A DNA stretch of 63,002 nucleotides, counting the filler, from Globobulimina sp. (taxonomy: Eukaryota), in NCBI GenBank assembly GCA_003354225.1. It is 37 parts of 37 records of this genome, joined end to end, with 100 filler letters (N's around TTAATTAATTAA, not from the genome) between each part and the next. Parts side by side here need not be neighbours in the genome. Positions count along the whole stretch, not along the records: positions 52,877 to 54,481 come from PIVH01014218.1; 36 more parts are not named here. One strand, written 5' to 3'. Below the pieces are notes generated by a model. The model had not been told where the DNA came from. It did not search any database and saw nothing but the letters and a program-made list of their open reading frames with translations. Of the stretch, positions 8,534 through 54,481 are shown in pieces (the first letter of the stretch is position 1; each line of letters opens with the position of its first letter). The translations under genes and the position numbers were made by a program.

Positions 8534-10139
8534 GACAATCAAAACAAAATCCCGCATGAAACCGAGAATGAATTTTGGTATAGAATTGTTGAAGAAGGAT
8601 TTGCTATTTTTTGGGAACGATTTATGACAAAATTTGCAAACTTATCTGCAACTAAAATTGATTTAAGTGGTATTAAGATTGGTAATGCCGGATTGCATGC
8701 GGTTTGTGACTCTATTGAAGAATGTCAACATTTAACACATTTAATATTGAGGAGCAGTTTATCGTCAGATCGATGGTCAGATACCGAATATAAATGGCCA
8801 TTGAAATATTTATGCGATACATTATTGATAAATAATACATTGGAATATTTAGATTTAAGTAATTGTTGTATTGATGCAATTAAATTTGAGCCGATTGGTT
8901 ATCTCATTGAGAACTGTGTATGTTTGAATACATTAAATTTAAATGGTAATAATATTGGACAGCATATTTATAACAATACCTGTCCAGCCATAAAGGTATT
9001 GACATCATGTATATTAAAGTCTCATTCATTGGTAGCATTATATATAAATCATAATGAAATTGATGGTTTAGGCGCATATTTGATTGGTGAATGTTTACAA
9101 AATACGCAATGTACATTACAAGATGTTGATATTTCAAACAATCCGTTGGGAACAAATGGGAATGGATTTGTGCAGATTGCAAAAGCAATTCGAATTAACG
9201 AATGCTTAAAAACATTAAATATATCATATTGTATTCGGAATTATGATTATTCAGAATGTATGGAACCGGTTTTACATTCAGTAAAAGAAAATAAATATTT
9301 AACAAATCTGAATATTTCCGGGAATATTCTTTCTGAAAATGCAATGAAATATTTGTCATTAGCAATTCAAATTAATTCCAATATTCAATGTCTTAAAATG
9401 AAAGATATTGTGATTGATAATGAAGCATTTAATTCAGTATTAACTGCCATATCAAATAAAGAATATAGTTTTGTTGAGTTCAGTGTAGATATTCAGTCTG
9501 CAAATAATATGGAAATAGTACTAAACTCATTATCCAATCATTCAAATCTGAAATATTTATGTTTATCCAATATAAAACAAGAAAAATCAGATCCGTCGGA
9601 ATTAGATATTCAACAAACATTTTGTGGATTAGTTGTCTTTGATTTAAGCAAAACATGTCTATCATCAGAATGCATTCGTTCAATTATTGCAGTGTTGTAT
9701 GAAAATAATGAATGTTTAACAAGTTTAAATTTAGAATCATCAGAATTAGATGAAAATTGTTGGAATTCGTTAATAGAATTATGTAATAAATTGCCATTAA
9801 AACAATTAAATATTTCTAAATGTTCAGTAAATAATTGTGATATTTTAAAAGAGTTTTTTCAGTCAAAAGCAGTGATGGAGAGTTTAATTGATTTAAATAT
9901 GAGCAATATGGTATGGAACAACAATGAGCCTCTTATGATGTTTGAGATATTATTCCATGAATCACAATCTGTTGCAAATGACAGAGAATTTTGTTTAAAT
10001 TTAGCTGGTATATCACTTCATGAACATAATATTATGAATAACAAAGATTGTATGTGTCATTTATTTAATGTTTTATCACAAATTGGTGTACAAACATTGG
10101 TTTTGGATAATTTTATAATTGTAAACAATGAAATTAATA
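8534..10139 (+). CDS. RNI-like leucine-rich repeat protein (NLRC3/RanGAP-like), partial
   Basis: Repeated LxxLDLSxNxI(G) units, e.g. NNTLEYLDLSNCCI, TLQDVDISNNPLG. Confidence 0.88.
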
Positions 10140-41419: not shown

Positions 41420-42184
41420 TTAAATGTTTATAATAATTCCATCATGGGCCCCGACAATATGTGCGTGTAAATCCATTAGATTTTTAAATATCCGATCACA
41501 TAAAACACATTGTTCATTATCGTGCCTTTGTACATGTTTATTATGTGCAGATCGATCAGAAAACGCTTTCAAACAAATGTGGCATTGATAGGGTTTTTCA
41601 CCAAAATGAATTCTTTGGTGTATACGTAGCCGCGTATTATCAGCATACCATTTACAACAAATCGGACATTGTTTTTTGCCATGATTTATATCCGTATATT
41701 TATTATGCATATTATTCAAATGTTTGTATAAATATTTCCTTTTTGCAAATATTTTACCACAAAATTTGCATTTAAAAACCAACGGTATGTCACGGTGTGT
41801 ATTCTCATGCTTTTGCAGCAGTTTTATGCTTGAAAATTGTGCCTTGCATGTAATGCATTTGAATTTATACCAATGATAATCGCGGATGTGCCGATATAAT
41901 TGCTTGCGACTCGCAAATTGCAACAAACATTTGCGACAATGTTCGTGTTTGTTGTTTTTATTATGGTTGTTATGGATGTTGTTGTCATGTATTGTGATGT
42001 TAGTGGTTGATGTTATGGATAATAATGAGGAGGAGGATGATGATGTAATTGATTCGGAATCAAATTGTGATGGATCGCCCCTAAGGGACTGTTTTGAGCA
42101 CATTTGTGATGTGCATGGTTTATAACTATGCGATGTGTTGATGTGTTGCGAATGTGCGTGGTGTAAAAATGGATGGCTTGCCAT
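41420..42184 (-). CDS. C2H2 zinc-finger protein (6 fingers)
   Basis: CxxC...HxxxH repeats with an HFGEKPYQC linker. Confidence 0.93.
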   Translation of the reverse strand: MASHPFLHHAHSQHINTSHSYKPCTSQMCSKQSLRGDPSQFDSESITSSSSSSLLSITSTTNITIHDNNIHNNHNKNNKHEHCRKCLLQFASRKQLYRHIRDYHWYKFKCITCKAQFSSIKLLQKHENTHRDIPLVFKCKFCGKIFAKRKYLYKHLNNMHNKYTDINHGKKQCPICCKWYADNTRLRIHQRIHFGEKPYQCHICLKAFSDRSAHNKHVQRHDNEQCVLCDRIFKNLMDLHAHIVGAHDGIIINI

Positions 42185-43393
42185 TGCGAATGATGCGGGA
42201 TTGCCATGTGAAATGCGATTATTGTTTGGTGTGTTTGATGCTGAATTGGTTGCTTGTTTATGTTTATGTTTGTAGGGTTGAGTGTAGGTTTGGTTTTGTA
42301 TTAATTCATTAAATGAATTACATTGTATGTTTGCATTTTGGGTGTAGGAGGTACCCGCATTTCTGGTGGTTGGCTTGCACTTTAAAGTTGCATGATGGGT
42401 TTAGTGGAAGATACGAAAAATGTAAAGTGAAGAAGAGGTTTTCTATTTTTAGCACTTGTTTTTGCGTCATATTTTTTCGTATAAATTCATAGAATTATTG
42501 TGATTATTTGTGATTATTATGAAAAGTTCATAATTGATCGACCATANNNNNNNNNNNNNNNNNNNNNNNNNNNNNNNNNNNNNNNNNNNNTTAATTAATT
42601 AANNNNNNNNNNNNNNNNNNNNNNNNNNNNNNNNNNNNNNNNNNNNGATGTAGTGAGTTTATGGAACAGTTTTTAGAAGTGCGGAAACGCAAAGCGGATA
42701 ATATATACAGCTCCGCAAAATGATTTTTCGAGTTAGCTTTAATAAAATAATTAAATAAAACAATCGCAAACAAAAAACAAACACTCTTGCTTTACTCTTT
42801 CTGTTGGCGTTGGCGTGGTTGTGTTTGTAGCAGTTGCTTTTCATCATTCTCTGTCTTCTGCTGCTGCTATGACTACGCTGTGACTACGCCTGCTTCTGTC
42901 CCTTTTGTGTGTGTTTGTTGTTGGTGAGACAGTTTCGCTTTTGTTCTTTGTCCTTTTGCCGTTGGTGACACAGTTCCTTTTGCGTTGGTAAGTATAACAT
43001 TGTGTTGAATCGTGGTGTTAGCACCAAATTGCGGAACCGATGTTGCCACCATGGATTTATTTTTTTTGCCCCACACTGCTGTTTCACAAGTAAGAAAACT
43101 CCACAATTCTGTTCCACAAAAAATGAGCCTTAAATTGAGTGGATTGGATTGAATTGAATTGGTTGGATTGAGAGGATAGATTGGATAAAAAAAATAGAAT
43201 TGGATGATAAAAATGCAAATGCCATACAATATGGCTCTCCGATAAGTACTGATTTTTTTTGCTGTTTGAAAAGGTTTTTTTGTTTTTTACTGATCTTATC
43301 AAACACCTCACCAATCGTCGCTATGCCGGTGTCTCATATCGTAATATATTAAAAAAAATAACTCGGTTCATAGACCAAAGCGAAATTTCAAAG

Positions 43394-52876: not shown

Positions 52877-53291
52877 GATATTCATTTGTTAATTGCTCAA
52901 TCGATTTATCACTAAGCTCGGTTTCGTATTCAATATTCTCAACAACTTCGCTAATATCAATTTTATTATCAACCATTAGCTGCGTATTGAAGCAATCCAA
53001 CAGATGCGTAAGTGCTTCATGAGCATCCTCTTGGTCAAATAACCGTTCCGAAAAATTATGTCTAAAAAGCTTTACAAAACTCGTTAATTTAATTTTACGG
53101 ACGTCATCTTGTTTTATTTTGCTAATTACTGCTACAATAATCCGATAATTTTGTAATAATGTTTTGCTATCAACTTGTGTATTTACTATCATCGCATTAA
53201 AATCATCACATGCTAACACTAATTGCAATAACGAATTTAGGAAACATGTATTGCCCAGATTGATTAAGCCAACTTTACGAAAAAACTCCAT
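52877..53291 (-). CDS. Compact ubiquitin carboxyl-terminal hydrolase (peptidase C19), N-terminus
   Basis: Cys box GLINLGNTCFLNSLLQ starts at residue 8; QEDAHEAL. Confidence 0.92.
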
Positions 53292-53439
53292 TTAAATGTA
53301 TAATATATTTATTATTTTATTTATTTAAATAAATTTTGATTTTTTTCACGCAATTATGAATATACTTTATGAATATACTACAGCAAATGCTCTCTACTAT
53401 ATTATTTTCAGAAAAAATTTTAATATAGTAACGCGATAA

Positions 53440-53498
53440 ACTTTACCGACCCTCTCCCCCGAGAACCCTGGCGGGGGAGGGGGATAGGCGGAAAAAGT
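53440..53498. promoter_or_regulatory. GC-rich hairpin in an AT-rich divergent intergenic region
   Basis: ccctctcccccg-agaaccctgg-cgggggaggggg stem, extended by ccg/cgg and acttt/aaagt. Confidence 0.7.
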
Positions 53499-53590
53499 AA
53501 AAATATACAAAAGATTTAAAAAAATTTTAGTGAAAAATGCATATTTTAGTAGGCTTTTTTATGTTTGGCATAATAACAAATATAAATTTT

Positions 53591-53790
53591 GAAAAAGAAT
53601 ATTCTTTTTTGAAAAAGAATATTTATTTATAGCAAATAAATACTATTTTCGTGAAAAAGAATATTTATTTATGCCAAAACGGATAAAAAGAATATTTATT
53701 TACGATAAAACGAATAAAAGAATATTTATTTACACCAAAACGGATAAAAAGAATATTTATTTACACCAAAACGGATAAAAAGAATATTTT
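53591..53790 (+). repeat. Iteron-like tandem array, ~31-bp unit aaaaagaatatttatttacaccaaaacggat
   Basis: Core AAAAGAATATT occurs 7 times; four near-complete units are contiguous. Confidence 0.92.
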
Positions 53791-53839
53791 TTTTTTAAAT
53801 ACAATAAGAAAATAAAAATATTAACCTAATATATATAAG

Positions 53840-54481
53840 ATGGCTCACTGTGACGTCTGTAATCATGCATATTTCTCACTCCAGGCACTTAAAAAGCATA
53901 AAACTACTAAAAAACATAAGAAAAATGCCGCAAAAACAACTCGAACAACTATAAAAGAAATTAAAATATTAAGGGATACAGTGGATACAAAACCGGATAC
54001 AGTGGATACAAAAAATAAATTACCGGATACAAAACCGGACACAACGGATACAAAACCGGATACAAAACCGGATACAAAACCGGACACAACGGATACAAAC
54101 CGGATACATTATGACACAAAAGAAATATATGGTTATTGTAGATTTTGTAATGCCGAATTTAAACAGCGTACATCATTATCACGCCATGAAAAACATCGTT
54201 GCCCATTACGAAATGAGCAAAATGAGCATATTCATGACTCTAAACAATATTTGGAGATAATCAAATTGCTAAAGGAACAGCTTCATCGATATGAAGAGCG
54301 ATTAACTGAAAAGGATGAATACATCAAAGAGTTAAACAAACAACTCGCTGAGAAGCCAACACATATAACAAATAACACGGCAAATATAACACAGCAATAT
54401 AACCTATATCCAAACAGGGATGAGCAATATGAATCAACTGATTTTCGATTTATTGATATGTTTAATGTGAAACGATTAAAT
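53840..54481 (+). CDS. Giant-virus-like C2H2 zinc-finger protein with DTKP repeats, coiled coil and N-rich segment; 3' truncated
   Basis: CDVC...HKTTKKH, (DTKP)n, CRFC...SLSRHEKHRC, EKDEYIKEL, HITNNTANI; tatatata just before the ATG. Confidence 0.75.

Follow-up and report, generated by a model that had tools for sequence, protein, structure and literature searches.

Does the assembly of Globobulimina sp. (Eukaryota; NCBI GenBank GCA_003354225.1) contain DNA of a giant virus? The question is posed by a single contig, PIVH01014218.1, which carries parts of a deubiquitinase gene and of a zinc-finger gene separated by a long, repeat-bearing intergenic region. The original prediction assigned this contig to a nucleocytoplasmic large DNA virus (NCLDV) infecting, or endogenized in, the protist and likened the zinc-finger gene to the MIGE elements of mimivirus relatives. 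Our sequence comparisons favor a giant-virus (Imitervirales-like) derivation of the contig with a probability of about 0.6. The source of the DNA may be a virus infecting the protist, an integrated viral relic, or a bystander virus present in the sample.

The window, i.e., the whole 63,002-nt stretch of DNA that was analyzed, consists of 37 contigs of 1604 to 1607 bp each, sorted by length and separated by spacers of the form N...TTAATTAATTAA...N. When the window was cut at the spacers, positions 52877 to 54481 corresponded exactly to one whole contig (piece 32) with a GC content of 0.292. Since the window is a concatenation, adjacency of features located in different pieces is meaningless. 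The contig appears to hold the 5′ portions of two genes transcribed away from each other: one codes for a compact-type USP, the other for a divergent member of a dual-zinc-finger family. Its main parts are as follows.

52877–53291, minus strand: USP/UCH (peptidase C19) deubiquitinase gene, N-terminal 138 codons (translation; Pfam PF00443)
53232–53270, minus strand: Cys box GLINLGNTCFLNS, residues 8 to 20, with the catalytic cysteine (sequence; columns invariant in the alignment with the homolog P0003, see below)
53292–53839, no strand assigned: AT-rich divergent region of 548 nt, leader of the zinc-finger gene (sequence; GAATAT count)
53840–54481, plus strand: dual zinc-finger protein gene, N-terminal 214 codons, predicted to belong to the MIGE-type superfamily of giant viruses (translation, hhalign, family model, Atlas)

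The USP open reading frame (ORF) starts with an ATG at 53291 and stays open until the contig end at 52877, while the zinc-finger ORF runs from an ATG at 53840 to the other contig end at 54481, again without a stop. All the features that had been described for this contig, namely, the divergent ORFs, the Cys box, the two fingers, the linker between them, the hairpin, and the repeat array, are present. The accompanying terms “minimal” (for the USP) and “intronless” are not shown, as both ORFs are partial, being cut by the contig ends.

The evidence for viral origin comes mostly from the zinc-finger ORF. The protein fragment that it encodes, P0002, has the following layout.

53849–53917, plus strand: finger 1, C-x2-C-x12-H-x5-H (C4/C7/H20/H26), columns invariant in alignment A1
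53974–54108, plus strand: DTKP linker between the fingers, encoded by tandem DNA repeats with units of 12, 21, and 45 nt, AAACCGGATACA-type (TRF; repeat families D2 and D4)
54137–54202, plus strand: finger 2, C-x2-C-x12-H-x4-C (C100/C103/H116/C121), invariant in alignments A1 and A4
54230–54355, plus strand: probable coiled-coil helix (~residues 131 to 172) followed by the N-rich stretch ITNNTANIT (weak Pfam matches; model of a relative)

Pfam returned only weak coiled-coil–type matches for residues ~125 to 190, and in the structural model of a relative, the part aligned to the helix of the contig forms one long helix (residues 93 to 128).

A phmmer search with P0002 against 1.84 billion representative sequences yielded nine matches at E ≤ 1e-3. 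The best one, from a grass, and another from a lobster match finger 1 only, which they contain in several repeated copies. Finger 1 alone is also matched by the unnamed 116-residue protein P0006, and the bacterial protein P0008 is similar only in the helix region (residues 146 to 201). The five others (P0005, P0007, P0009, P0011, and P0012), all metagenomic, cover finger 2 and the helix and have a common order of parts: finger 1, a linker that varies and is often repetitive, finger 2 (C-x2-C-x12-H-x4-C), the helix, and an ITNN-type stretch. No named eukaryote with this two-finger-plus-helix architecture was found among the representatives. The P0007 cluster originates from small-size-fraction ocean samples, with European Nucleotide Archive (ENA) contigs of up to 103 kb, and P0012 is encoded on a 350-kb contig.

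A metagenome scan with P0012 revealed 110 relatives, abundant in lake and marine metagenomes, and 78 loci were kept. Complete ORFs number 67 and code for 213 to 498 amino acids (median, 314). Proteins of this family have two fingers with a variable linker, then a long helix and an N-rich stretch, and a domain at the C terminus. To describe the genomic context, 103 flanking ORFs were scanned at seven loci located on contigs of 68 to 377 kb. All seven contigs carry Imitervirales-type genes within 10 kb of the zinc-finger ORF. Among these neighbors are MutS, Rpb2, Rpb5, asparagine synthase, thymidylate synthase, topoisomerase II, and PCNA, as well as the NCLDV major capsid protein, the P8 minor capsid protein, mimivirus-type poly(A) polymerase, and DVNP. 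The coding density of the family loci is ~0.9, and their GC content is 25 to 34%. The giant-virus contigs with this family also encode a DVNP-family protein (L025:7905–8411) and a DDE_3 transposase with a helix-turn-helix domain (L037:1744–2757).

When IMG/VR was scanned with P0002, P0005, and P0011 combined, one relative was recovered: a 310-residue ORF (locus L159) of the same architecture, with a repetitive linker; its neighbors on the 140-kb contig are Rpb1, RFC subunits, a subtilase, and a kinase. Thus, eight of eight relatives with readable context (the seven metagenome contigs and L159) sit among giant-virus genes. Scans of IMG/VR with the single proteins P0002, P0007, and P0009 returned no relative, and a word-indexed search with P0002 at near lengths returned nothing.

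P0002 was the sole scorer among 99 ORF pieces of the window when these were compared with the hidden Markov model (HMM) of the family (31.7 bits, in two colinear stretches). In an hhalign comparison with a profile of 49 family ORFs, residues 3 to 213 of P0002 aligned to columns 17 to 186 with a probability of 95.1% (E = 3.4e-8). Because the alignment reaches column 186, the truncated C terminus of P0002 enters the start of the family C-terminal domain. The Atlas look-alikes of P0002 point in the same direction: nine rows, comprising 30 hits, are all clusters labeled as Viruses at 98 to 100%, most commonly Nucleocytoviricota, with a top score of 0.96. By profile comparison, then, the zinc-finger ORF is a distant homolog and a divergent member of a large giant-virus gene family, and the expectation that its closest traceable relatives reside in NCLDV genomes was borne out by the eight contexts, the hhalign probability, and the Atlas clusters.

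The second ORF of the contig is a USP by sequence. The fragment, P0001, matches the Pfam UCH family PF00443 with an E value of 3.6e-15 (residues 7 to 107 against profile positions 1 to 108 of 254) and contains the Cys box N-x-G-N-T-C with the catalytic cysteine at residues 8 to 20; the predicted start of this box at residue 8 agrees with the translated sequence. A word-indexed search with P0001 at longer lengths gave one match, P0003, a 386-residue protein encoded on an 87-kb contig and 36% identical. A scan of IMG/VR with the alignment of P0001 and P0003 revealed at least 483 relatives, many of them on GVMAG-named contigs; neither protein recovered a relative when used singly. All 80 of the viral USP ORFs examined are compact (median, 347 amino acids). 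The N of their Cys box has a median position of residue 16.5, with 14 of the 80 having it no later than residue 15; in our contig it is residue 11. Compact USPs, as had been claimed, are thus numerous on giant-virus contigs, with their Cys box close to the N terminus.

The USP fragment shares with the compact USPs encoded in metagenome-assembled genomes of giant viruses a Cys box inside the first ~20 residues, the lack of an N-terminal extension, and 28 to 35% identity over residues ~8 to 119. It differs in that only 138 residues are available and in that the similarity is not clearly above that to cellular USP12/46, against which the fragment scores only slightly worse. Of the five rows of Atlas language-model look-alikes listed for the USP, four are viral UCH clusters (Nucleocytoviricota; top score, 0.96) and the fifth is a eukaryote cluster (0.89). 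Judged by these similarities, the USP appears compatible with viral origin. When the 99 ORF pieces of the window were compared by tblastn with all fetched viral loci, only generic matches (phosphatase and ubiquitin) were obtained beside the USP. No conserved neighborhood of the two genes was seen: a zinc-finger family gene was found within 8 kb in 3 of the 80 USP loci, and at one locus, L137, another gene intervenes between the two. The piece of the window that precedes our contig (51185–52774) encodes a DUF3517 region, a domain known from large cellular USP9X/USP34-type proteins; it has no relation to the USP considered here and is adjacent via concatenation only.

Is the zinc-finger gene a MIGE? 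According to the published descriptions, MIGEs consist of a single ORF that bears a zinc-finger motif and follows noncoding DNA and occur in multiple copies in Mimiviridae relatives (bioRxiv 10.1101/299784; PMC4669402), with twelve copies in Phaeocystis globosa virus (PgV) and six in Chrysochromulina ericina virus (CeV) (PMC4669402). The large metagenomic family may correspond to MIGEs, the comparison with the PgV and CeV elements being one of description. The gaps upstream of the family ORFs have a median length of 335 nt (n = 49) versus 68 nt for other gaps (n = 469), in line with the noncoding stretch ahead of the ORF in the published description of MIGEs (bioRxiv 10.1101/299784). Two copies of the family occur within a few kilobases at L032/L033, L025, and L041, each recognized by P0005 at two places in a tblastn search, which fits a multicopy element.

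Our contig shows part of this picture. It contains a zinc-finger ORF, with two fingers, homologous by profile to the giant-virus family of such genes, and a noncoding leader of 548 nt in front of it. The leader is unrelated to those of the metagenomic family and bears instead 31-nt tandem repeats and a GC-rich hairpin. The two fingers are separated by a linker of much greater length and of repetitive sequence. Within the window, the family HMM detected no second copy among the 99 ORF pieces. In the Logan contigs of run X1, two loose ends share 38 and 45 nt with the zinc-finger gene and then diverge, one of them running on into the start of another C-x2-C ORF; this divergence after a shared stretch suggests paralogous zinc-finger copies in the same sample. 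We consider the gene a probable member of a MIGE-type giant-virus superfamily, a divergent variant that has a repeat-bearing leader of its own.

The leader contains the following elements.

53354–53379, plus strand: exact 13-nt tandem duplication, TTATGAATATACT ×2 (repeat family D18)
53450–53483, no strand assigned: GC-rich hairpin with arms CCCTCTCCCCCG and CGGGGGAGGGGG, a 10-nt loop, and a stem of ~12 bp (fold)
53587–53653, plus strand: degenerate repeat copies, including a perfect 18-nt palindrome AAAAAGAATATTCTTTTT at 53592–53609 (TRF period 21, 4.1 copies; inverted repeat I17)
53654–53793, plus strand: array of the 31-nt unit AAAAAGAATATTTATTTACACCAAAACGGAT, 4.5 copies (TRF score 224, 90% matches)

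The repeats have a core, AAAGAATATTT, that occurs six times at spacings of 42, 31, 30, 31, and 31 nt; for the 16-mer core, 5 hits were obtained compared to 0.06 expected. The spacing of the 31-nt array equals approximately three helical turns, and while the core is constant, the 3′ half of the unit varies. Of the 107 GAATAT words in the whole window, 10 are located in the 548-nt spacer. The 13-nt duplication, 63 to 88 nt upstream of the USP ATG, also has a GAATAT core, as in the repeats of the zinc-finger leader. CGGATA is present on the plus strand three times in the leader, seven times in the linker, and 19 times across the whole window. A 71-nt segment with the hairpin folds at −16.4 kcal/mol (z = −3.29), and 1 of 200 shuffled sequences folded as well. 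The leader contains no tRNA gene and no Rfam family at its gathering score; Rfam gave only three matches, all far below that level, terminator-like sites were not found, and sigma-70–like sites occurred at chance level. The predicted TATATATA just upstream of the zinc-finger gene is indeed there, on the plus strand at 53830–53837, ending 2 nt ahead of the ATG. As a family-specific signal it was rejected: of 66 family ORFs, 8 have ATATATA no farther than 30 nt from the ATG, as do 101 of 538 other giant-virus ORFs.

Each of three lineages of the zinc-finger family has its own repeated leader word: GAATAT in our contig, GAACAC at L159, and TGGACA/TGTCCA in the large family. The leaders of the large family have a common consensus with a TGGACA...TGTCCA palindrome, and TGGACA/TGTCCA is found two or more times in 49 of 53 of them, an 11-fold enrichment. 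GAACAC occurs seven times in the L159 leader and once elsewhere in 16 kb. The seven GAACAC(TTTT) copies of this leader (L159:7657–7976) form two clusters, and the DNA of the L159 inter-finger linker contains seven to nine copies of another word, AACAACC.

We propose that the 548-nt intergenic region controls the zinc-finger gene and that the phased 31-nt repeats, the palindrome, and the GC-rich hairpin would most plausibly be arrayed sites on which a dimeric protein docks that binds DNA sequence-specifically. The zinc-finger protein itself, probably acting as a dimer, would be the likeliest one to do so, and the arrangement would then function like an initiator or repressor gene located beside its own iterons. 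The fingers of the family match classical DNA-binding C2H2 fingers (PRDM9, CTCF, and Aart); because of these DNA-binding–type fingers, the long helix, and the lineage-specific leader words, we infer that the protein may dock on its own repeats. By analogy, such binding, together with dimerization, could serve regulation or replication. In iteron-type plasmid replicons, an initiator gene is located next to phased direct repeats. Our contig resembles them in having AT-rich direct repeats at whole helical turns, near a palindrome and directly upstream of the gene for a predicted DNA-binding protein, and differs from them in that this protein has no homology to Rep proteins.

An indication of what such docking might serve comes from the C-terminal domain of the family. 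A model of this domain (L008:10391–10894 with 47 homologs, alignment A5) had a pLDDT of 91.3 and a pTM of 0.86, and none of the 48 members matched a Pfam family. Its best match in the Protein Data Bank (PDB) was African swine fever virus (ASFV) PrimPol, residues 371 to 547, located between the primase and the helicase (Z = 6.6; root mean square deviation, 4.4; 138 residues aligned). Other matches among the top eight were the SaPI5 primase-helicase (Z = 5.0), vaccinia D5 (Z = 4.3 and 3.9), and PriRep1 (Z = 3.9). All these Z values are below 8, the level for trusting a shared fold, and a Foldseek search against the PDB with either structural model gave no match at E ≤ 0.001. The modeled domain may thus resemble the collar (D5N-like) region of NCLDV primase-helicases such as ASFV PrimPol and vaccinia D5 and point to a replication-linked role, as a lead only; our contig retains only ~35 residues of it.

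The array and the hairpin could instead be functionless, the former being AT-rich repeats made by slippage and the latter a GC palindrome that arose by chance within a long promoter. We consider this unlikely, while giving it real weight. Tandem repeats arise readily in AT-rich intergenic DNA, the hairpin has no copy elsewhere in the window, its pattern gave 0 matches in IMG/VR, and in IMG/VR and the word-indexed searches, no close relative of the contig was found in which conservation could be followed. However, simple slippage does not readily account for a constant core at a regular 30- to 31-nt spacing with a variable 3′ half of the unit, for a copy that is a perfect 18-nt palindrome, or for the presence of repeated leader words in two other lineages of the zinc-finger family. 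Docking sites thus seem to us the better explanation of the array.

Several results weigh against our explanation of the contig. The identity of P0002 to the family in the hhalign alignment is only 21%, and the Atlas scores rest on features open to influence by AT-rich amino acid composition. In giant-virus loci from metagenomes, 680 kb in all, tblastn with P0001 and P0002 produced no match at 1e-3, and an nhmmer model of 53 family leaders detected nothing in the contig at E ≤ 10. The mimivirus-type early promoter motif, AAAATTGA, is absent from 53292–53839. An 8-mer shared by the leader and the linker, AACGGATA, is not significant (P ~ 0.066), and in 53 family loci, a crude test of 7-mer sharing between a gene’s own leader and own linker gave 0.0985 versus 0.0883 (P = 0.13). 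The best viral USP scored 38.6 bits with the USP fragment in phmmer compared to 30.9 bits for human USP46; since viral and cellular scores discriminate so weakly, the USP provides only modest support for viral origin. Neither this contig nor the set of the 43 largest ORFs in the window yielded an NCLDV hallmark gene at E ≤ 1e-5; the core genes MCP, PolB, A32, and VLTF3, for which the original prediction had suggested looking, thus failed to appear in this set. Last, the GC content at third codon positions (GC3) of the two ORFs is 0.28 and 0.27, inside the host range of 0.29 ± 0.07 calculated for host ORFs with Pfam hits; the composition therefore gives no sign of foreign origin.

What does the host look like? 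The largest ORFs of other pieces, coding for Arf, CAP-Gly, Trm112, and NIPA proteins, a carboxylesterase, a GH3 protein, an amino acid transporter, a C2H2 array (41423–42400), and a DUF3517 protein, are ordinary eukaryotic genes. The best database matches of the carboxylesterase have 60 and 56% identity in EukProt and 54% for an ENA protein; with best matches of only 54 to 60% identity, the organism is a poorly sampled eukaryote, consistent with a protist. One piece (8534–10138) has a 535-codon open frame across the whole contig without a Pfam match and with a GC3 of 0.19, the lowest among ORFs of such size.

Could the contig then carry ordinary nuclear genes of an AT-rich protist, with one divergent promoter serving both a cellular USP and a C2H2 transcription factor, and with the viral likeness caused by composition or by an old, fixed transfer? 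The host-like GC3, the near-equal scores of viral and cellular USPs, and the lack of hallmark genes among the ORFs searched would all be expected in this case. The host encodes C2H2 arrays too, and in so poorly sampled a lineage (56 to 60% identity for the esterase in EukProt), cellular orthologs could lack database entries. Yet, such genes would hardly explain why not one named eukaryote among 1.84 billion representatives has the two-finger-plus-helix architecture, why giant-virus genes surround all eight relatives whose context could be read, or why hhalign places the protein in the viral family with 95% probability. For both proteins, Atlas lists viral clusters as look-alikes, and the Cys box is found at residue 8 without an N-terminal extension, as in viral USPs. 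On balance, we regard a purely cellular origin as distinctly improbable and a giant-virus derivation as the preferred explanation.

Less probable still is that the viral DNA belongs to a giant virus of some other organism that was present in the sample, such as a contaminant or co-cultured prey; it would then carry no information on this protist. In favor of this, the runs with the contig are Logan contigs of one sample with more than 1.6 million contigs, where its coverage is patchy at a depth of ~3 to 4 (23 of 30 bins in X1, 4 of 30 in X2, and none in X3; no RNA run is listed with it), and relatives of the zinc-finger family abound in lake and marine metagenomes. Against it, the composition equals that of the host contigs, which fits a virus adapted to or resident in the genome, although this argument is weak.

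The predicted NCLDV origin is thus supported in part, through the zinc-finger family, while the host-virus pairing to which it could have pointed is not established by it: both ends of the 1.6-kb contig fall inside the ORFs, so that no virus-host junction is visible in it.

The contig is short, the evidence is indirect, and we regard the finding as a lead of moderate weight, short of a discovery. New host-virus links have giant-virus DNA in protist assemblies as a main source, and such fragments are common. The link suggested here, if confirmed, concerns a lineage whose nearest sequenced relatives are only 56 to 60% identical in a conserved esterase. In its boldest form, which we consider a long shot, the proposal is that the contig comes from an unknown Imitervirales-like virus, or its relic, of this protist lineage; that it carries a new MIGE subfamily in which a zinc-finger dimer docks on 31-nt leader iterons; and that MIGEs are initiator-plus-iteron modules, not transposons. 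If this were true, MIGEs would be origin-like or self-regulating selfish units, with the D5N/PrimPol-collar–like C-terminal domain of the relatives forming part of the case. MIGE elements are known but unexplained, and the lineage-specific leader words together with the C-terminal domain offer a testable idea of what they do. This idea about the function of zinc-finger elements is the finding's most valuable part.

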